Shown here in pieces: positions 8,378-18,951 of a stretch of 64,000 nucleotides of DNA. The notes under the pieces are model-generated. The model did not search any database and was not told the DNA's origin. It saw only the letters and a list, made by a program, of their open reading frames with translations. This stretch comes from Candidatus Hodarchaeota archaeon (GTDB taxonomy: Archaea > Asgardarchaeota > Heimdallarchaeia > Hodarchaeales > Hodarchaeaceae), in the NCBI GenBank assembly GCA_016840035.1, contig JAEOTC010000068.1, positions 1-64,000 on the forward strand. The letters run 5' to 3'. The position numbers and the translations under genes are program-made. Positions within the stretch are counted from its first letter, which is position 1; each line of letters starts with the position of its first letter.

Positions 8378-10216
8378 TTACCACCTAGAAAACCCTATTC
8401 CACAAGTTTCTGATATCAACAACAAGAATAAAGCAATTTCCTCCATTTCCTGGTTTGATTCTGAAGCAACAAACGCAACACCTTCTCCATGATATAATGG
8501 TTGCATTATCATGGATATAATTGCATCTAGTGCTTTTCCAAGGGTCCACAAAGCTTCTGTTTCTACCTGTTCACGGATTTCTTTCTCATAGATGAAGGTT
8601 TTAAATTTTGAAGGAATTTTTTCTCTTACAAAATCACGGTTAGGTGGGATAATCAAAATTGAACCTTCTCTAGGAATGTTGAATCTTGACGATAACGTCT
8701 TAATATTCAGTTCTACTTGTGTGAGATATTCTACAATACTTAACCATAGTGTACCTCTTACTGCAACCTTATCATGCTCTATGGGAGCTTCTAAAGAGAC
8801 TGAACTATGATTAATCTCAACTTTTCCTTTTACTTTGGTAGCAATGTCCTTGAGTGACTCAGCTATGCCTTCAAGTCTTGGACCATAAGTAGAAATTTGA
8901 CATACTACTTGGTCGAGCTTATGGAATAGACTTACCGTAATATTCGACTCGCTGGAGGGAATTACTTCTGCTGGTGTTAGATCAAGTGCCATTGGAGATG
9001 TATCTAAAACTACAGGGATATCAGCAAAGTTATATTGAAGGCCACTTTCTCTGGTTTTTTGTAATTGAGCAGTAATTTTGGAGCTTATTTCACTTACGGG
9101 GATTGAGGGCTTGATAACGGGTTTTTCTACAATCGTTTTTGTTGGAATTGCATCTGGCTCTGCAGATAGTTGGATATCGGGTCTAATTGTTGTTTTTTCA
9201 ACTGGTGGTGCACTCAATGCCGAAGTTGGTGTTTGCAATTCCTCCTTTTCTACCACTAATTCTTGTAACTCTGGTATATCTGCTGTCTCAATTTCTCTTG
9301 CCGGGGGACTGAGTTCTCGCATTTTATACATTACTGGAGCGGACATTGTCACTACAATATCTTTTCCGGGTTGTATCACAGTCGATAACAAGACGTTGTT
9401 TCTGATATAGTTATCCTCACTAGGAGGAAACATTGCCATAGATTGGGCAATCTCTCGTGCATCATTATTGTCAATAAACTTTCTCATTTTCGCAGTATTG
9501 GAATTCTCCCCAAAAATTCTACTAAGAACATCATAAACATGTTCTCCAGCATTTGCAGAAAAATACTGTTTGAGAGGTGACTCTAAACCGAAAATCAATA
9601 TGTTATCATTATCCTCAACCCCAGGTATAGGAGTAAATGATAGAACTCGTGAAGTTTTGGAAGCCTCAATAATGGATAAGAGGTCGCTTGTATCATTTGG
9701 ATTGATAAACATCAATCTAGAAACTACACTCTCCACTCCATACCGAAGATCATGAGCAAAAGCAGTTAGTAATACTAATGCAGAGAGCATTCCATCGCCT
9801 GTTCGTGGAATAACATATATAGAATCCGCAGGAGATGTTAAAAGTTGATAAAAGGTGTCCAAATGCCTGTTCTGAGCATCTAGTACATTTCCATCAAGAA
9901 ATTGTTCAATTAAATTCAATACAATTCCCATGGTAGGGACGACTTGACGGGCATTTTTTGCGATAGGGATCAAGACTAGTGCGACAAGATCGTCAGATCT
10001 TTTTACTTGAGGAAATAGGAATATCATCCGATGATTCTGAAATCTGATAAAGTGAATTCTTTCTCCTCCCATAATCTTCTGCGAAAAGAGAGTTAGAACT
10101 TGGGTAACAGTTGCACTAATTTTTGAGTGCTCAGTTAAACGCCCTTTACCTGAGCTAAAAATTACTCTATTTTGATGAACGACAAGGAGATCGGTAGAAT
10201 CCATTTGTATATCCAT
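8378..10216 (-). CDS. Multidomain protein with N-terminal longin-like domain, possible DENN-like core, Pro-rich linker and unknown C-terminal domain
   Basis: 612-aa ORF; LFSQKIMGGERIHFIRFQNHRMIFL..LVALVLI is a longin-like helix-strand pattern; domain calls are inference. Confidence 0.55.
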   Translation of the reverse strand: MDIQMDSTDLLVVHQNRVIFSSGKGRLTEHSKISATVTQVLTLFSQKIMGGERIHFIRFQNHRMIFLFPQVKRSDDLVALVLIPIAKNARQVVPTMGIVLNLIEQFLDGNVLDAQNRHLDTFYQLLTSPADSIYVIPRTGDGMLSALVLLTAFAHDLRYGVESVVSRLMFINPNDTSDLLSIIEASKTSRVLSFTPIPGVEDNDNILIFGLESPLKQYFSANAGEHVYDVLSRIFGENSNTAKMRKFIDNNDAREIAQSMAMFPPSEDNYIRNNVLLSTVIQPGKDIVVTMSAPVMYKMRELSPPAREIETADIPELQELVVEKEELQTPTSALSAPPVEKTTIRPDIQLSAEPDAIPTKTIVEKPVIKPSIPVSEISSKITAQLQKTRESGLQYNFADIPVVLDTSPMALDLTPAEVIPSSESNITVSLFHKLDQVVCQISTYGPRLEGIAESLKDIATKVKGKVEINHSSVSLEAPIEHDKVAVRGTLWLSIVEYLTQVELNIKTLSSRFNIPREGSILIIPPNRDFVREKIPSKFKTFIYEKEIREQVETEALWTLGKALDAIISMIMQPLYHGEGVAFVASESNQEMEEIALFLLLISETCGIGFSRW

Positions 10217-10258
10217 GTTAATTCATTGGAATAATCTATGAGTTAGCTTATTAAGGTT

Positions 10259-10888
10259 TCATGATCTAAAATCATCGAACTTATAATCACCCTCTCGTAC
10301 AAGTTTTGGATTGTTAGGGCAGGTAATATCAATGATTGTCGAGGGTGATCTTTTTGGTAATATACCTTGGTCAATCCACAAATCAACCTCCGATTTTGAT
10401 AAGTTCCTGAATACCTCTGAAAAATCTACGCTTGGTTCGTGACCTGAGGTGTTTGCGGATGTACCAATAATTGGAAAATCAATTCTTTCAATAATACTAA
10501 GTAATAAATTATGTGTTGGAACCCGAAAGGCTAGAGTATTATTTCTTGATGGATTTAGATATGGAGAAAAGTTTTTCAGACCCGACTCTTTTAAAAACGC
10601 AATAAAAGTAATTGATACAGGCCACTTTTCTTTTAGCTTTGTGATTATATCATCAGATGCTTCAATGTAACGTGATACCATTTCTAAGGTCATTAAGACA
10701 CTTAATGGTTTTTCTAGTGGTCTTCTTTTTATCTTAAAAATTTTTTTTACGTTTATGTTATTTTCTATTGTTGCTACAGTGCCTAATCCATAGACAGTAT
10801 CGGTAGGATATACAGTAACCGCTCCTCTCCTCATAATTTCCACAGCTTTATCCATTATCTCTGGATCTGAGGCATTAAGCTTTTTCAA
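10259..10888 (-). CDS. tsaC: L-threonylcarbamoyl-AMP synthase (TsaC/YrdC, single domain)
   Basis: PTDTVYGL, KIKRRP..KPL, FRVP, GTSANTSG, STIID. Confidence 0.92.
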   Translation of the reverse strand: MKKLNASDPEIMDKAVEIMRRGAVTVYPTDTVYGLGTVATIENNINVKKIFKIKRRPLEKPLSVLMTLEMVSRYIEASDDIITKLKEKWPVSITFIAFLKESGLKNFSPYLNPSRNNTLAFRVPTHNLLLSIIERIDFPIIGTSANTSGHEPSVDFSEVFRNLSKSEVDLWIDQGILPKRSPSTIIDITCPNNPKLVREGDYKFDDFRS

Positions 10889-10963
10889 ATGAACTCCTCT
10901 CTCATTGAACTATTCTGAGGAAGAAAAAATTGTTTTCCGGGATTTCAAATGGAGTGGTTAAAG

Positions 10964-11728
10964 TCATTGTTGTTGTTTCATCATGTGAATAATGATCTCT
11001 CTAACAAGGCTTTCTACTGGTTTTATCACACGATTTACACTTGTAGGTCGATATTCTTTTTTCAATCGGCCATTCTCATTAACAATTTTACTTCGATCAC
11101 TACTTGATAAGAGCTGCTTTAAATCGTCACGAGCATTTAGACATGAGACCTCAATAATTCTAACTGCTGCATCTCTTAAACTTGCTACTGCACCAGATTC
11201 ACTTAACAGTTTTCCTACCTCAAAAGATGATATACGTTGGTCAGCAGGAAGATCCATCTTGTTTAGCATAATGTGGTATGGTAGTGATCCATTCGCAAGT
11301 TTATCCCCAGCTAAATCATTTATCTCTTTGAGTGCGAATTTATTTTCCTCCCATCTTGATTTTTCTGAATCAACTACACAAATCAATCCGTGGGCTCCTC
11401 GTAAAACAACTTTTCGTTGTCCAGAGTGACGTTCCTGTCCTGGTACGGTGAATAAGTGATATTTCAAAATAGGGAGGCCTGCACTTGTCTTCCCAATTCC
11501 AAAAATTCCCTGATCGAAGAACAAAGTCCGACCTGTTGGGTCTTCTAACTTTAAAAACTTATACACATTCTCTGGGTCTTCAAGACTTTTTAGAACTTTT
11601 GTTATTGTTAAAGCTGTAGTTTTCCCTGCTAAAGTTGGTCCCCAAAATACTATTTTTACTACTGGGACTCCTTGATGATCTCTTTTTATTGTTTCAAAGG
11701 AAGGTTGAGCCTGCATGATAAACACCAT
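10964..11728 (-). CDS. MglA-like small GTPase
   Basis: KIVFWGPTLAGKTT, GRTLFFD, HLFTVPGQ, NKMD are MglA-type G1-G4 signatures. Confidence 0.85.
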   Translation of the reverse strand: MVFIMQAQPSFETIKRDHQGVPVVKIVFWGPTLAGKTTALTITKVLKSLEDPENVYKFLKLEDPTGRTLFFDQGIFGIGKTSAGLPILKYHLFTVPGQERHSGQRKVVLRGAHGLICVVDSEKSRWEENKFALKEINDLAGDKLANGSLPYHIMLNKMDLPADQRISSFEVGKLLSESGAVASLRDAAVRIIEVSCLNARDDLKQLLSSSDRSKIVNENGRLKKEYRPTSVNRVIKPVESLVREIIIHMMKQQQ

Positions 11729-11770
11729 GTAACTAGTGGAGATGAAGGTTTATACAAGAGATATTTCGAA

Positions 11771-12295
11771 TTATTTTGATATTACTTGTTTCGCTAATTT
11801 TACGAAAATTTCTTCAATTTCTGAACCACCCTCTTTCGCTGAGGTTTCGTAATAAGCTAAATTTAATTCATCAGCGACTTTTCGGGCTTCTTTCTCTGAT
11901 ATTGCTCTGTTATCTACAAGATCCTTTTTGTTTCCAGCTAATGCAATGGGAACTTCTGTTTGAATGTATTTCTTAAATTCATTCAACCAATTAGGTATGG
12001 CAGTAAATGATTTCTCATCATTAAGAGCAAACATAATTAAGCATGCGGAAGCACCACGATAATAGCTCGGTCTTAGTTTCCCAAAAAACTCTTGTCCTGC
12101 AGTGTCTACAAGTATCAGTTTAACCTGTATATCATCGAGAGGGATTTTCTTTGTAGTAATATCAACTCCTAATGTGGGTAAATAGTTGGTATCAAATTTA
12201 TTTTCTGCAAAACGTCGGATGAGGGAGGTTTTCCCAACATTTCCAGACCCAATTGCACAAATCTTGAGTAAGTATTCATTATTACCGTTTGTCAT
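11771..12295 (-). CDS. Rab-like small GTPase (Ras superfamily)
   Basis: GSGNVGKT, PTLGVD, DTAGQE, YYRGA, NKKD, ETSAK; no C-terminal Cys. Confidence 0.93.
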   Translation of the reverse strand: MTNGNNEYLLKICAIGSGNVGKTSLIRRFAENKFDTNYLPTLGVDITTKKIPLDDIQVKLILVDTAGQEFFGKLRPSYYRGASACLIMFALNDEKSFTAIPNWLNEFKKYIQTEVPIALAGNKKDLVDNRAISEKEARKVADELNLAYYETSAKEGGSEIEEIFVKLAKQVISK

Positions 12296-12320
12296 GTATT
12301 AAAAGCCTCTGGTATTACCG

Positions 12321-13280
12321 TTATAAGCCCATTTTTGAAAGATCTTGTAATGACTGTCGCATATCATCGATAAATTCATCACGTTCAGAACGTGTTTTTT
12401 CCCTCAACATGTCAATGAAGAGAACCTGCCCATCTTCGATAAAGAGGCGTACCTCATAATGTGCAGCAGGGAATATTCCTGCAGGTAAATCATCCATTGG
12501 TTCGAGTTTAACAACATCCTTTGAAAATAGATGTAAGTGCTCCTTAATAGCTGAAAAAACAGTATTCCCAATAATAACTATTTCTCTCTCTAGGTGAGAA
12601 GGTACCTCCATATCTTTTAATTTTTCAGTGACCACACTTAGAGGGGTCGAGGATGTAGCATCAACTTGACGTGTAACAACAACCTCCGTTTCCTTAACAA
12701 CCCTTGGTTTTGAAGAGGGCGCGGATGTGGGAGTACTAATTGGTTTGGGTGTAGGAGTCGTGGATTGTGTAGCTGTCATTGCGGGTGCTGGAGACGGTTG
12801 ACGACTTGGCGTGGGTTTTGACGTTGAAATTGGTGCTTTAGAAGGAGCTGGGGCTGGACGAGGTTTTGGTGTCGTCGCAGGAGCTGGTCGTGGAGTGGAA
12901 ACTGCAGCTTGGGCAGGAGCGGTACTTGGTCGTGAAACCACCTCAGTTGTTGGTTGGTCTCTACCTGGAGAACTCGGTTCTTGGGGTACTTCTCCAAAAA
13001 TAGCAAGAAATTCTTTACCCTCTATACCAGGATCGAGACTATCAATCCTGTAAACCATTCCATATTGTTCTTGACGCATCTGTTGTGCAGCTTTTGCTGA
13101 AATGAATTTTCTTCTAACGGGTGCCTCTTCTCCCTTCCATATGAAAATTTTTCTTACTCCTTCATCCACAATGATATACACTGCATTATTCTGTAGTCCT
13201 CCGAGGGATGACACATCACACGGAGTTAAAGTCCCATCGTCGTTTACTGTAAACTTCTTTACAAGGTTAGAGTTGCTCAC
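12321..13280 (-). CDS. Gelsolin-domain protein (single gelsolin domain + Pro/Thr/Ser linker + C-terminal domain; 1DGelX-like)
   Basis: AVYIIVDEG.RKIFIWKG..APVRRKFISAKAA is a gelsolin-repeat pattern; long PAP/TP-rich linker. Confidence 0.8.
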   Translation of the reverse strand: MSNSNLVKKFTVNDDGTLTPCDVSSLGGLQNNAVYIIVDEGVRKIFIWKGEEAPVRRKFISAKAAQQMRQEQYGMVYRIDSLDPGIEGKEFLAIFGEVPQEPSSPGRDQPTTEVVSRPSTAPAQAAVSTPRPAPATTPKPRPAPAPSKAPISTSKPTPSRQPSPAPAMTATQSTTPTPKPISTPTSAPSSKPRVVKETEVVVTRQVDATSSTPLSVVTEKLKDMEVPSHLEREIVIIGNTVFSAIKEHLHLFSKDVVKLEPMDDLPAGIFPAAHYEVRLFIEDGQVLFIDMLREKTRSERDEFIDDMRQSLQDLSKMGL

Positions 13281-13496
13281 AAGTTATCAACACACAGTTC
13301 TAAGTGCAAAATCATGAGTGTTTGATGATTTTCACGGTTATTCTATATCTAGAACCTATCAATACTACTTTTTAAAATCCACTCAATATATTGACTCAAT
13401 AAAGCTTTGAAAATTCATTCATAAATTTCTTTCTTTTTATCCTTCAACGTTTTCTAGATATATTTTTCGTTTAGTCTGGGTTTGGAACTTACTTGT

Positions 13497-14318
13497 ATGA
13501 AAATGAAGATAGACAATTGGATTGAAAGGGGATTAAGTTCATTAAGCGCTGATGAAATATTTGACGGCATGCAATTACTAGAAGGAGCAATGCAACGAGT
13601 ATTTAGAAGTAACAAACCTAAAATAGCATTAAGAATAATTAAAGGTACGAATGAAATATTAATCGGAAAAGGATTAAATGAGATATTTTGTAAATTCATA
13701 CTAGATATCATTCCACTTTTCAGGAAGAAATTAGGTGATATGGATTGGTTTATGTTAATTCCTGATATCTTATCAATATTGAGAAAACAGAGTATGTCAA
13801 TGTGCACATCAAACTTTCTTAACAGATTAATTCTAGAGTCAAAACCCGTACAAGAAGATTTTCTGGAATCTTTTGTGTCAAGCATTGCCCAAAAACAGTA
13901 TACAAAGGAAGTAGTTGTAGATTTAAATTATTATCATGCAGGAGTATTAGTTTTTAAAAAGGACTATGTAAAATGTTTTACTGTTTTAAAGGCATGGTAC
14001 AAATTAACACCGTCTAGTCCACAGGTGTTAACTTATCTAACATTAGCAGAATTAAATGCATATGAAGTAGAGGGATGTGGTAAGTACTTGAGTGAGGCTA
14101 AATCTCTTCCAGATAAATCATCATACATTGAACTTTCTTCTCATATTTTCAAATCAGTTGACCTAGGAAATTATGATCTATATTTATCAATGATAGAAGA
14201 ATTCACCGACCTGGTGAATGTGAAAAAAGACGCACTGCTTAAAGGATTGTGCGATGGCATTGCTGATTTTCTGAAACCAAAGAATAGTGCGGGTCTTTTT
14301 TCATTATTTGGAGGATAA
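13497..14318 (+). CDS. Alpha-solenoid/TPR-like protein, Get4/TRC35-like candidate
   Basis: All-helical amphipathic pattern; see finding; ATG 13497 preferred to TTG 13482. Confidence 0.55.
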   Translation: MKMKIDNWIERGLSSLSADEIFDGMQLLEGAMQRVFRSNKPKIALRIIKGTNEILIGKGLNEIFCKFILDIIPLFRKKLGDMDWFMLIPDILSILRKQSMSMCTSNFLNRLILESKPVQEDFLESFVSSIAQKQYTKEVVVDLNYYHAGVLVFKKDYVKCFTVLKAWYKLTPSSPQVLTYLTLAELNAYEVEGCGKYLSEAKSLPDKSSYIELSSHIFKSVDLGNYDLYLSMIEEFTDLVNVKKDALLKGLCDGIADFLKPKNSAGLFSLFGG

Positions 14319-14837
14319 AATTGCTTCTCTTATTTTTTCTACTGCTTCCTTTCCTGTTTCAGCTTTAATAACTTGATTTCGAATAGGAGGATGATTCAAA
14401 GAGCCTCGTTCACTAATTTCTTTACTCCAACCTTCTATAGAGGCAATGCATACAATCGGTTTATTATAGAGAGCAGCATAGGATAATTCTGATAATGTAC
14501 CAACTCCCCCTCCACATGCAATAACACCATCACTTGATAGTGAAACAATCGGATTCCGTCCCCAATGTAAGTATGTAGAGATTTTTACAGTTAAATAGGG
14601 AGAAACTTCGGCACTATCAGCTCCCTCAGGGAGAATACCTATTGAAATCCCATTAGCATCATGAACTCCCCTTACAGCTGCTTCCATCACTCCTCCTCTT
14701 CCACCACAAATTAGAATGGAATCAGATCTGGCTACTCCCTTGCCTATTTCATAAGCAATATTAAATTGTTTCTCTGATCGAATTTTTGAGTCTCCGATTA
14801 TGCCTATCTGTAACCTTCTTTTACTCATAATAACCAC
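14304..14837 (-). CDS. LOG/SLOG family protein (TIGR00725-like)
   Basis: CGGRGGVMEA, GILP, RN, GGGVGTLSE. Confidence 0.88.
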   Translation of the reverse strand: MVIMSKRRLQIGIIGDSKIRSEKQFNIAYEIGKGVARSDSILICGGRGGVMEAAVRGVHDANGISIGILPEGADSAEVSPYLTVKISTYLHWGRNPIVSLSSDGVIACGGGVGTLSELSYAALYNKPIVCIASIEGWSKEISERGSLNHPPIRNQVIKAETGKEAVEKIREAILSSK

Positions 14838-16656: not shown

Positions 16657-18951
16657 ATGGTTGGCCTGAAAATTTCATCCCCTGAACTAAAAGATGTTAT
16701 CGACATTCTCGGATTATCCGACGATGAGCAAGGTGTTATATATATTAACCTACTGTCGTTAGGAATGGCAACTCTAGGCCAGCTGAGTCTAGTTTCTGGA
16801 ATTGATTTCATACAGACACAGGAAGCATTAAACGTACTGATTGGAAGTAATTTAGTTAAGCGTATACCAGGAAAAGTAGGACGCTATATTGCACTTCAAC
16901 CCTTCTTAAAGGCATTTTTTCTCGCATACGACCCCATTACTCTTTACAATGTGAGGAAAGAATCAAAGGAAGGATTCACGAAAGGACAAGAAGATCTTTT
17001 TCAGAAATTTCAAAATACACAGGAAAGATATCGTGAACAAACATCGAGTTTAGTTCAACAATTCAGTGAGAATTTAAATCCAATTACCGAGGGATTCTCC
17101 TCAATTTCCACAGAACATAGAAATCTTGTATCATCAATTCATGAAACTCTAGATTCAGACACTCAAATGATTAGAGAAGAAATTCAAGCTATTATCAGAC
17201 ATGCGTTAGATTTGTACAATCAACTCAATGAAGAGAACCTTAATGAGATTGAAAAATTTCCTACGATTTTTAACGACAACCTTCCACTAATAAAGAACCA
17301 ATTGCTGAACGTTCAGAAAAAGATATCTTTTAGATTCGAAAAATTACGAATAGGACAGATTGAGAAAGTTGATGAGGCAAATAAATCATTCGGGGAAAAA
17401 ATAATTCTCCATATGAATGAAAATCAACGTATTTTAGAAAATTTCAATAAAATTCTAGCTAAAAACCGTGAAAATATAGAGGAGATTACATTTGAGACAA
17501 AAAATGAGCTAGAATCAATAAAAAACGATGCAGCTACTACACAACCTAAATTTAGCGAAATTCAACGTACATATCTTGAGATCGAGGACAATCTGAAATC
17601 TCTCTTTTCTGCTATTCCTCTGAAGTTGAATAATATCGAAAATGTCATTACTGACCTAACATCAGAAATTAAAAATCGAAAAATGTTTAGAGGAAAAGAA
17701 GAGTTCATAGAACAGCTTAAGATAATCCAAGATGAAAAAATGGAAATTTCTCAGCTCATATCGACTTCAAATGTCAAATCTGACCTATTAAATAAGCTTA
17801 ATCAAGATTTGACTGAAATTGAAAACAAACTAGTTCATGCAGCAGATATAGGGGTAGCTTCGGCAATTAATGTTTTTGAAGAAAGAAGAAAATTACTTAG
17901 GGATCAATTAAATGATATAGAAAAAGATTTCAATTTAAATATTGGCAAAGAGGTAAATGATTCCTTTTTAACAATAAAACAAGGAATCAGTGATCAAATA
18001 ATGACCCTTAAGCGAGATTCAGATGACCTGTTTAGGACATTGTTGCAGGATTTAGCAGAAGAGTCAGAAGGTGTTGCACGCTTATTTTCCGAGGATATTT
18101 TAAATTCCATAAATGAGTTCAAACAGAAAGTAAAATTAACATTGGAAGGAAAGAAGTCAAGAACTATTGAAGAGAGCGAACTAACAAAGAAAATCACTAG
18201 CATTGGTGAATTAAGTAATAGAGTGAAAACAGATCTTAATAATACAACCAAAGGTATAATAGATCTAGATGAATCATTAAATTCTTATTTTTCGGGATTA
18301 ACCACGTTCACAAATAGTTATGCAGAAGAACAATTCAATACATCCGTCCTCAACCTAGAAGAAACAGGAAAATTGATTGATGAATTTATAAAAAGAACTG
18401 AACAACAGCTTGAAGATGAAGTGTCTGCCTTAATCTTCTCTATCAAAGAAATGAAGCAAAAATTAGATAAAATTACGATTGTAATGAGTTCTGTGGAATT
18501 AGATGAACTAGACCCGTCTTTATTGGATACTGATCTCATTATTGGAGAACCAGTCATTATCATGCTCCTTCGTGATTTAACAGTAAGAACGAAATCATCT
18601 CTTACTATCCTTATGCCTCGTCCTGAACTACAAACATTAATTACTGCATCCAAGCTACCGTTCAAAACTCGTGTGACTATTATTGGGGATTTTGTTAAAG
18701 TACCAAAAACTACTCTTAAGAAAGTATTATCTTCATCCAATATTCGCTTAAAGCAGCTTGATGGTATTGAATTTTGGGGATGTATCAGAGATGCAGAAGA
18801 ATTATTGATCTGCCCTGAACCTACGAATCCAGAAAAGGAAGAATTGGTCGGAGTGATTACAACAAATGGACATCTAGTCGATCTATTTACACAAGAAATA
18901 ATAACTTATACTACTAGAAGCAGAGAAATTTTACCCTCTCACTTAGAATAG
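16657..18951 (+). CDS. TrmB-like HTH protein with long central coiled coil and C-terminal alpha/beta effector-type domain
   Basis: N-terminal LGLSDDE..IYINLL..G.AT...LS...GI wHTH; about 500 aa heptad-rich region; C-terminal WGCIRDAEELLI resembles the TrmB/PLD-like domain. Confidence 0.7.
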   Translation: MVGLKISSPELKDVIDILGLSDDEQGVIYINLLSLGMATLGQLSLVSGIDFIQTQEALNVLIGSNLVKRIPGKVGRYIALQPFLKAFFLAYDPITLYNVRKESKEGFTKGQEDLFQKFQNTQERYREQTSSLVQQFSENLNPITEGFSSISTEHRNLVSSIHETLDSDTQMIREEIQAIIRHALDLYNQLNEENLNEIEKFPTIFNDNLPLIKNQLLNVQKKISFRFEKLRIGQIEKVDEANKSFGEKIILHMNENQRILENFNKILAKNRENIEEITFETKNELESIKNDAATTQPKFSEIQRTYLEIEDNLKSLFSAIPLKLNNIENVITDLTSEIKNRKMFRGKEEFIEQLKIIQDEKMEISQLISTSNVKSDLLNKLNQDLTEIENKLVHAADIGVASAINVFEERRKLLRDQLNDIEKDFNLNIGKEVNDSFLTIKQGISDQIMTLKRDSDDLFRTLLQDLAEESEGVARLFSEDILNSINEFKQKVKLTLEGKKSRTIEESELTKKITSIGELSNRVKTDLNNTTKGIIDLDESLNSYFSGLTTFTNSYAEEQFNTSVLNLEETGKLIDEFIKRTEQQLEDEVSALIFSIKEMKQKLDKITIVMSSVELDELDPSLLDTDLIIGEPVIIMLLRDLTVRTKSSLTILMPRPELQTLITASKLPFKTRVTIIGDFVKVPKTTLKKVLSSSNIRLKQLDGIEFWGCIRDAEELLICPEPTNPEKEELVGVITTNGHLVDLFTQEIITYTTRSREILPSHLE

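Follow-up and report, generated by a model that had tools for sequence, protein, structure and literature searches.

The window analysed here comprises positions 1 to 64,000 of contig JAEOTC010000068.1 from Candidatus Hodarchaeota archaeon; it is AT-rich, with a G+C content of ∼0.35 across its length, and among its numerous eukaryote-like genes are those for GTPases of the Ras family and a gelsolin-like protein. One of its forward-strand genes encodes a protein of 273 amino acids, here called P0001, which a first-pass annotation of the DNA had proposed to be an archaeal homolog of Get4/TRC35, a component of the GET pathway for tail-anchored proteins. In eukaryotes Get4/TRC35 acts as the pre-targeting adaptor of this GET/TRC pathway and primes the Get3 ATPase for its tail-anchored clients. 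Archaea are known to have Get3 as well as insertases of the Get1-like DUF106/Ylp1 lineage, and the pre-targeting module (Get4, Get5/Ubl4A, Bag6, and Sgt2) is treated as eukaryotic. Hodarchaeales are the proposed closest archaeal relatives of eukaryotes. The results described below point to P0001 as a strongly diverged archaeal protein of the Get4/TRC35 lineage that would dock on Get3 as an adaptor, a reading to which we assign a probability of ∼0.6. Its two parts differ in strength: homology of P0001 to Get4/TRC35, as judged from profiles, is very likely, and a working role as Get3 adaptor, argued by analogy, has slightly better than even odds.

A conserved single-copy gene of Hodarchaeales

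As shown in Table 1, the coding sequence opens with an ATG. Orthologues begin at the second methionine of P0001 (MKIDNW, nucleotide 13503), which is an alternative start, and the TTG at 13482 is unlikely to serve as the start codon. The A/T-rich ATATATTTTT lies 30–39 nucleotides 5′ of the ATG, inside a 216-nucleotide divergent intergenic region, and may be the TATA box for a monocistronic transcript with a short leader. The peptides on which the first-pass annotation relied are all present in the translation (SSLSADEIFDG...GKG at residues 14–59 and IFKSVDLGNYDLY...LFSLFGG at residues 217–273).

Table 1. Coordinates of the P0001 gene, its parts, and the other genes considered (window positions unless a locus is given)
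Feature	Position	Strand	Basis or remark
Open frame containing the P0001 gene	13482-14318	+	ORF (open reading frame) listing
Coding sequence of the Get4-like protein P0001	13497..14318	+	ATG at 13497; 273 amino acids plus stop
Candidate TATA box, A/T-rich	13458..13467	+	Read from sequence
N-terminal half of alpha-solenoid, residues 1-135	13497..13901	+	hhalign against Get4 N-half; PDB hmmsearch
N-terminal segment of the first-pass annotation, residues 14-59	13536..13673	+	Aligned to GET4 (...SHG) by hhalign
C-terminal solenoid half, residues 136-262	13902..14282	+	hhalign by halves; ESM-Atlas with residues 136-273
Motif YLTLAELNAYE(I/V)EGCGKYL, residues 180-198	14034..14090	+	Top conservation in Hodarchaeales family
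Hydrophobic, Gly-flanked C-terminal tail (..SAGLFSLFGG)	14283..14315	+	Conserved; disordered in model
Convergent SLOG/LOG-like gene (PF18306)	14304..14837	-	ORF listing and Pfam
Upstream, divergent run of eukaryote-like genes	8378-13280	-	
Gene of 764-residue protein	16657-18951	+	
Antisense ORF, 143 amino acids	13454-13885	-	
Get3 gene (P0170), 315 amino acids	G000:C112:65271-66215 = L002:1477-2424	+	282 bits to PF02374
P0169 gene, 290 amino acids	L057:820-1689	-	Sister-family genome G079
P0164 gene (bridging family)	L041:829-1680	-	Genome G397, another Asgard class

An exhaustive phmmer search with P0001 over 1.8 billion representatives gave 15 matches, all in its own family, and nothing outside that family. 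The homologues number 30 (271–305 amino acids, 35–66% identity) and carry the labels Hodarchaeales/Heimdallarchaeota. When the family hidden Markov model (HMM) was run against 400 Asgard genomes, a single copy was found in each of the 21 genomes (21/21) of the window's own family. Further, the order of the P0001, SLOG, Trm56, and Ras-like GTPase genes is kept in orthologous loci at 37–40% protein identity; this conserved block therefore shows that the P0001 gene is real and conserved, yet it indicates no functional partner. Thus, the gene is confirmed as real, single-copy, and conserved.

Two more distant archaeal groups belong with this family. A merged archaeal profile (A4, 35 sequences) added one of the two genomes of a sister family in the same order; its protein, P0169, is a very divergent member of a third subfamily with the tail SGGLFPLF, and the other sister-family genome (85% complete) gave no match. 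The Hodarchaeales HMM also matched, at E 4.6e-8, P0164, a protein of 284 amino acids from another Asgard class. With its four close relatives, P0164 makes up a family of five sequences (P0164–P0168, 278–290 amino acids), all that were found in 5.8 billion; the second helix pair of this family is TPR_2-like, and its C terminus reads GFPGFPGMPFGGG. Because hhalign aligned the Hodarchaeales and P0164 families over 251 columns with a probability of 97.5% and an E-value of 6.6e-12, the two constitute one superfamily, and of the two it is the P0164 family that lies nearer to eukaryotic Get4. Weak matches of the merged profile in five other Asgard families (G144, G146, G152, G208, and G343) were rejected: they were partial and non-collinear, with an hhalign probability of at most 10%.

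Within the Hodarchaeales family, conservation is concentrated in three zones: the N-terminal face (W8, G12, F22, D23, G24, Q26, G30, A31, and R34 are invariant), the central motif YLTLAELNAYEIEGCGKYL (Y180, T182, L183, A184, E185, N187, E190, G195, and L198 are invariant in 31 sequences), and a C-terminal zone, D.LLK.LCDGI..IF....GLFSLFG, the tail of which is conserved at G266, S269, L270, and F271. A hydrophobic C-terminal tail is common to all three archaeal subfamilies (GGLFPLF in P0169; GFPGFPGMPFGGG in the P0164 family).

Profile searches single out Get4

Direct searches with Pfam models did not recognise the Hodarchaeales proteins. Neither GET4 (PF04190) nor SNAP (PF14938) matched P0001 or any of the 31 family members at E ≤10, hmmscan giving scattered weak TPR-clan noise alone, and a search of the whole genome with PF04190 missed the P0001 ORF and made one unrelated match (E 0.33). 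Similarly, P0001 as a single sequence was absent from the top 25 when a metazoan Get4 HMM was run against the ORFs of the genome. The bridging family, however, is recognised: PF04190 matches P0164 at a library-wide E of 0.0016 (residues 133–260 against model positions 131–233) and two of the five members of its family, and in a Pfam-wide hmmscan of P0164 GET4 was the sole non-generic family below E 0.01, with TPR_2 matching too. SNAP matched none of the 31 + 5 archaeal members at E ≤10, and Pfam PCI models matched neither P0001 nor its family members. Searched through the genome, the SNAP model matched long TPR proteins only and missed the P0001 ORF; its matches above the cut-off were proteins of 508–931 amino acids on contigs C246, C262, C153, C260, C253, and C135, and these are probably TPR-clan cross-matches rather than SNAP homologues. 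We class P0001 as a divergent archaeal protein of the Get4 kind rather than as a strict PF04190 member.

Searches from the archaeal side, in which Get4 was not preselected, returned it first. As a query against all 177,635 distinct PDB sequences, profile A4 gave Get4/TRC35 exclusively in its top eight matches: yeast 2wpv_A at E 0.0012, then 9ns5_B, 5bwk_E, 3lku_A, 5bw8_C, and 4pwx_E, and the human chains 6au8_A (E 0.014) and 7ru9_C (E 0.019), with designed repeats coming next. The N-terminal match covered residues 22–82 of yeast Get4 and also TRC35, and no Sec17/SNAP chain appeared at E ≤10 in these 177,635 sequences with the archaeal profiles. Consistent with this, feature retrieval in ESM-Atlas (7.7 million clusters) with the whole of P0001 placed GET4 in 25 of the 30 nearest clusters (0.94, 218/256 features) and SNAP at rank 15 (0.83), and residues 136–273 alone retrieved GET4 at 0.90 (192/256 features) and SNAP at rank 25 (0.77). 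Because the recognition value for P0001, 2291, was slightly below the mark of 2300, we treat this retrieval as a lead and not as proof.

Direct comparison of profiles with hhalign gave a graded picture. All archaeal sequences against metazoan Get4 reached a P-value of 5.7e-5 over 252 collinear columns, and the score rose as archaeal diversity was added. The N-terminal half aligned with the N-terminal half of Get4 over 89 columns (probability 84.6%, P 6.8e-6) and the C-terminal half with that of Get4 (P 0.0051), whereas the crossed comparisons were not significant (N against C, P 0.76; C against N, P 0.15); the N terminus of P0164 against the metazoan Get4 alignment gave a P-value of 4.8e-5. 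In a null set of 221 random ORFs of the genome, the best score was 24.6 (P 0.01), and the P-values behaved as expected. We also added ten metazoan Get4 sequences to the 5,118 ORFs of the genome. With the archaeal HMM, seven of them (E 1.2e-5 to 7e-3) ranked directly below P0001 and ahead of the best of the other 5,117 ORFs (E 0.17), the many TPR proteins of the genome included; in reverse, 10 of the 12 top matches of the Get4 HMM were members of the archaeal superfamily. The Get4 signal is therefore not accounted for by generic resemblance among TPR-like proteins. Taken together, the profiles argue that the family is kin to Get4 in both halves and specifically so with respect to other helical-repeat families, at an identity to eukaryotic Get4 of about 10–15%.

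These results bear on the alignments from which the Get4 assignment had originally been made. The human GET4 strings that the first-pass annotation had quoted were correct: database GET4 proteins matched at 100% identity when a 74-residue bait with the N-terminal string was searched, and the C-terminal strings are present in the metazoan GET4 consensus. The ungapped N-terminal pairing likewise exists, but it comprises 6 identities in 46 positions, and P0001 as a single sequence scored at chance against the Get4 profile (P 0.27); taken by itself, the pairwise resemblance therefore lacks significance. In contrast, the register of that pairing was reproduced exactly, and beyond chance, by hhalign with the family profile (residues 14–102 against GET4 35–125). 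The suggested C-terminal likeness was recovered too, the three C-terminal helices plus tail aligning with GET4 ∼238–312 and the tail itself with the GLLGNLL..SL tail of GET4. Overall, the proposed Get4/TRC35 homology gains support from the top eight PDB matches of A4, the added Get4 sequences, the halves, ESM-Atlas, and the PF04190 match of P0164.

The predicted fold is shared by Get4 and SNAP proteins

The AlphaFold2 model of P0001, made with the family alignment, has 15 helices (predicted local distance difference test score (pLDDT) 91; predicted template-modelling score 0.88) and ends in a disordered 10-residue C-terminal tail (pLDDT <50). The P0164 model also has 15 helices (pLDDT 89). DSSP assigned no strands in either model, so winged-helix beta-strands are absent from both. 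TRC35 has been described as an alpha-solenoid in which ∼15 helices make up an N-terminal and a C-terminal half (bioRxiv 10.1101/154351). Both archaeal models display this feature of Get4 and, in addition, that of the SNAP fold, a twisted sheet of helical hairpins plus a C-terminal bundle. The length of P0001 fits Get4 as well, as had been claimed (273 against ∼290–330 amino acids).

Searches of solved structures returned both groups. In Foldseek, P0001 matched Sec17 and alpha/gamma-SNAP first (E 6e-5, template-modelling (TM) score 0.44–0.46), with TRC35/Get4 at E 4e-3 to 7e-3; for P0164 the TM-scores were 0.43–0.46 for TRC35 and 0.36–0.48 for SNAPs, with E-values down to 9e-6 for the SNAP fold. 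The structure check that the first-pass annotation had called for thus did place TRC35/Get4 among the best matches, but with Sec17/SNAP slightly ahead. An exhaustive structural alignment (VIA) against 48,161 chains gave for P0001 Z-scores of 13.7 (Sec17), 11.9 (gamma-SNAP), 11.4 (an eIF3 subunit), 10.8 (Rpn), 10.7 (TRC35), and 9.1 (Get4), the root mean square deviation (rmsd) of these matches being near 9 Å. For P0164 they were 15.1 (Sec17), 14.0 (gamma-SNAP), 13.8 (TRC35, 252 residues aligned), 12.4 (yeast Get4), and 12.1 (C. thermophilum Get4), and the TRC35/Get4 alignments to the two models span 208–267 residues. The ESM-Atlas structure library returned for P0001 only bacterial TPR proteins, at a TM-score of at most 0.51. 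Judged from these models, no solved folds come nearer than SNAP and Get4, and there is in effect a tie between them. Because SNAPs score equally or higher, the fold alone does not discriminate Get4 from SNAP; it is the sequence evidence that decides between them, and on profile comparison the choice falls on Get4.

Get3 and the predicted contact with P0001

The genome holds one clear Get3, P0170, and Get3 co-occurs with the P0001 family in 19 of its 21 genomes. The CxxC pair of P0170 (C262 and C265) is invariant in 20 Hodarchaeales orthologues, and the protein bears a Met/Gly-rich, TRC40-like insert (..GGLMGGFKSLFGGG..). Archaeal Get3 homologues without the CxxC motif are mentioned in a review (PMC6593721), and because P0170 has the motif, it looks like a eukaryote-like Get3. 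We also observed that its insert ends in ..FKSLFGGG, resembling the GLFSLFGG tail of P0001 itself.

When P0001 was modelled with two copies of Get3, two of ATP, and Zn, the three runs scored 0.52, 0.48, and 0.52 and three controls 0.00; at least 45% of contacts agreed between runs, and the partner pLDDT was at least 84. Of 80 solved complexes, 58 passed the mark for this score, as did 2 of 110 mismatched pairs; passes at 0.60 or under came from only 7 of those 80 and from both of the passing mismatches. The predicted complex, as a model, hence lends weak support to Get3 binding, and because Get3–Get4 complexes have already been solved, the pass may reflect likeness to these rather than binding. 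The multimer check suggested by the first-pass annotation separated P0001 from its controls (0.52 against 0.00) but gave a weak pass only.

In yeast, Get4/5 contacts Get3 by three interfaces: the N-terminal region of Get4 lies across both Get3 ATPase domains (interface 1), Get4/5 touches a lateral gate (interface 2), and the amphipathic C-terminal helix of Get4 (299–308) forms a composite lid with helix 8 of Get3 (interface 3) (PMC12506534). The strongest Get4 similarity of the archaeal protein falls in the N-terminal region, by which the eukaryotic protein docks on Get3, and its tail matches the C-terminal lid helix of Get4 in position, being short, Gly-flanked, and disordered in the model.

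Weighing the assignment

A number of observations weigh against this reading of P0001. The Hodarchaeales family alone reached an hhalign P-value of just 0.0026 against the Get4 profile, so the link to Get4 depends on bridging sequences; the Hodarchaeales-only profile found designed repeat proteins at E >0.05, and no Get4, in the PDB, and the P0164-family profile alone reached TRC35 at just E 0.19–0.22. The Get4 profile (A2) is shallow, with 12 metazoan sequences, the hhalign comparisons were run without secondary-structure scoring, and their probabilities against Get4 are 66–85%, none reaching 90%. No archaeal family member attains the GET4 gathering score of 30 bits, P0164 scoring 18.6 bits. 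The global fold searches put Sec17 and gamma-SNAP first, every TM-score to a solved fold is below 0.5, and the motif at residues 180–198 has no counterpart among the conserved Get4 columns, which suggests that it is a candidate binding patch for a lineage-specific partner. The gene is monocistronic, its conserved neighbours (SLOG, Trm56, small GTPases, and the gelsolin-like gene) have no GET link, the Get3 gene lies on a different contig, and the Get3 complex passed only weakly. The distribution is patchy because, once the Hodarchaeales families and the single bridging lineage are set aside, a credible homologue was found in none of ∼350 Asgard genomes. In eukaryotes, the C-terminal domain of Get4 binds a Ubl-protein partner (Get5/Ubl4A) or Bag6, which forms the bridge to Sgt2/SGTA. 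Finally, searches of the 87%-complete genome for Get5_C (PF17183), the kind of partner that the first-pass annotation had suggested looking for, for SGTA_dimer (PF16546), and for Get1/WRB (CHD5, PF04420) gave noise only, although divergent Get5 or Sgt2 partners could escape such searches. The Get5-binding site of fungal Get4 has a beta-hairpin, and neither the P0001 nor the P0164 model contains one.

One rival explanation is that P0001 is a true but very distant relative of Get4 that has stopped working with Get3, or never did, and instead serves as a lineage-specific helical scaffold, its N-terminal face and YLTLAELNAYEIEGCGKYL patch binding other partners such as the products of the nearby small GTPase or cytoskeletal genes. 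The conserved motif that Get4 lacks, the Ras-like and Arf/MglA-like GTPases and gelsolin-like gene, rather than Get3, in the neighbourhood, the empty Get5/Sgt2 searches, and the weak pass of the Get3 complex would all fit. We nevertheless consider it unlikely, because the strongest Get4 match is the N-terminal region that contacts Get3 (PMC12506534), all three archaeal subfamilies retain the hydrophobic tail, the neighbours are divergent or convergent and hence without an operon link, and Get3 is present in nearly all genomes of the family (19/21). Less probable still is that P0001 is a generic TPR-clan solenoid whose Get4 signal stems from TPR-like helix-pair statistics and was amplified by choosing Get4 for comparison. 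Pfam places GET4 and SNAP in its TPR clan, TPR_2 matches P0164, the ESM-Atlas structure library yields bacterial TPR proteins only (TM ∼0.5), the hhalign probabilities are modest, and the recognition value of 2291 is under its mark; however, searches blind to Get4 put it first (the PDB hmmsearch, ESM-Atlas, and the Pfam hmmscan of P0164), the added Get4 sequences outrank every TPR protein of the genome, and both halves are collinear with Get4, the crossed comparisons failing.

An alpha-SNAP/Sec17-like adaptor for helical bundles (SNARE-like tail-anchored proteins) that recruits an NSF/Cdc48-type AAA+ ATPase would agree with the top global matches in Foldseek and VIA, with the similar length and helix count, and with the SNARE-like proteins reported in Heimdallarchaeota (bioRxiv 10.1101/810531). 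Against this stand the Pfam SNAP model, which misses P0001 yet matches many TPR proteins of the same genome, the lack of any Sec17/SNAP at E ≤10 in the PDB, where Get4 fills the top eight, and ESM-Atlas, where SNAP comes after GET4 (15th and 25th). For P0164 the structural comparison is a tie (TRC35 13.8, gamma-SNAP 14.0), and at an rmsd of 7–9 Å the ranking mirrors the curvature of the solenoid more than kinship. We regard a SNAP-like adaptor as the least probable of the three. SNAPs carry a short hydrophobic Phe/Gly loop at the N terminus. Compared with the SNAP/Sec17 reference set (adaptors of NSF in SNARE disassembly; PF14938; PDB 1QQE, 2IFU, and 9CRU), P0001 and P0164 share the best global superposition (Sec17 Z 13.7–15.1), the length, and the helix count, but the hydrophobic element sits at the opposite end from the C-terminal tail of P0001, there is no sequence or profile signal (Pfam, PDB hmmsearch, and ESM ranking), and the TM-scores stay below 0.5. 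PCI-type lid subunits (Rpn, CSN, eIF3, Thp1/Csn12, and Rpn12) and HAP40 resemble the archaeal models in their helical-repeat part (Z 8–12.5), and the C-terminal half of P0001/P0164 aligns locally with Rpn12/CSN8/LENG8 at an rmsd of 4–6 Å; the models nevertheless lack the winged-helix beta-strands, there are no sequence matches, and these proteins rank below SNAP and Get4. In short, the outcome named in the first-pass annotation as speaking against a Get4, namely generic TPR, PCI, or SNAP proteins as best matches with no preference for Get4 and no predicted Get3 interface, did not arise: global fold searches rank Sec17/SNAP slightly higher, but the profiles prefer Get4, and the predicted complex with Get3 passes weakly (0.52).

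Compared with the Get4/TRC35 reference set itself (PF04190, formerly DUF410; PDB 2WPV, 3LKU, 3LPZ, 4PWX, 5BWK, 6AU8, 7RU9, and 9NS5), P0001 is alike in size (273 against ∼290–330 amino acids), in being a 15-helix alpha-solenoid with N- and C-terminal halves, in a profile similarity that is collinear in both halves and peaks in the Get3-docking N-terminal region, in a short hydrophobic C-terminal element past the last solenoid helix, and in coming from a genome that holds a Get3 with CxxC and a TRC40-like insert. It differs in that it is ∼10–15% identical, the archaeal scores being below the Pfam gathering cut-off; in that its model lacks the beta-hairpin for Get5 and an acidic C-terminal extension; in that no Get5/Ubl4A, Bag6, or Sgt2 was found in its 87%-complete genome; and in that the archaeal family has its own invariant motif, YLTLAELNAYEIEGCGKYL, which is absent from Get4, and belongs to an archaeal superfamily limited to Hodarchaeales plus one other Asgard lineage. 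A recent gene transfer from a eukaryote was considered and rejected in view of the ∼10–15% identity to Get4 and the three deeply divergent archaeal subfamilies.

Proposed role and significance

On the reading that we prefer, that of P0001 as a Get4-lineage adaptor, the two-halved, 15-helix alpha-solenoid would work on the organism's own Get3 (P0170). Its conserved N-terminal face would dock on the closed Get3 dimer with ATP bound, lying across the ATPase domains, the C-terminal half would point toward the client-binding chamber, and the hydrophobic tail GLFSLFGG would add to the lid of that chamber. In this way, P0001 could hold Get3 competent to receive tail-anchored proteins ahead of their delivery to the membrane insertase, and an upstream hand-off partner of the Get5/Sgt2 type may be absent or replaced. 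Four elements of this scheme are argued here by analogy with the eukaryotic system, in which hydrolysis is inhibited by Get4: that P0001 binds Get3, that it affects the Get3 ATPase, what its tail does, and which clients are served.

More broadly, we tentatively propose, at somewhat less than even odds, that Hodarchaeales run a two-tier, eukaryote-like GET pathway, in which a Get4-like adaptor primes a CxxC-type Get3, so that pre-targeting would predate eukaryotes and Get5/Bag6/Sgt2 would have been added later; the clients possibly include the SNARE-like proteins of Heimdallarchaeia. Get4/Get5/Bag6 is described as the pre-targeting complex of yeast and mammals, with archaea discussed only for Get3 and Get1-like DUF106 proteins (PMC6593721; PMC5868721), and a preprint on Heimdallarchaeota SNAREs notes Get3 but no adaptor (bioRxiv 10.1101/810531). 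In the searchable literature, no paper joined "Get4" with "Asgard" or "Hodarchaeales" with "tail-anchored." If the proposal holds, the pre-targeting step for tail-anchored proteins, so far a supposed eukaryotic invention, was already present in the archaeal ancestor of eukaryotes. With a Get4 relative confined to Hodarchaeales and one further Asgard lineage, the list of eukaryotic signature proteins would gain one that serves the biogenesis of membrane proteins, and the Get3–Get4 partnership would date from before eukaryogenesis. How an adaptor primes Get3 could, with P0001, be studied in a minimal system that lacks Get5, and whether P0001 is a Get3 adaptor can be tested directly, as both recombinant proteins needed for this are small and soluble.

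Neighbouring genes

The P0001 gene stands alone between a divergent gelsolin-like gene and the convergent SLOG/LOG-like gene. The 3′ ends of the latter and of the P0001 gene overlap by 15 nucleotides (14304–14318), and this tail-to-tail overlap recurs in three distant orthologous loci; the SLOG/LOG-like gene belongs to the conserved context and not to the proposed Get system. Upstream, the conserved, divergent run of eukaryote-like genes encodes a gelsolin-like protein whose linker is rich in Pro/Thr, two GTPases (one of the Ras family and one Arf/MglA-like), Sua5/TsaC, and a protein of 612 amino acids for which Pfam gave no match, and two distant orthologous loci show the same gene order. The antisense ORF within the P0001 gene is probably spurious, given the conservation of the sense-strand gene. 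Further downstream, the 764-residue protein has an N-terminal TrmB-like winged helix followed by ∼500 amino acids of predicted coiled-coil-like sequence, and counterparts of 760 and 763 amino acids occupy the same position in two orthologous loci.

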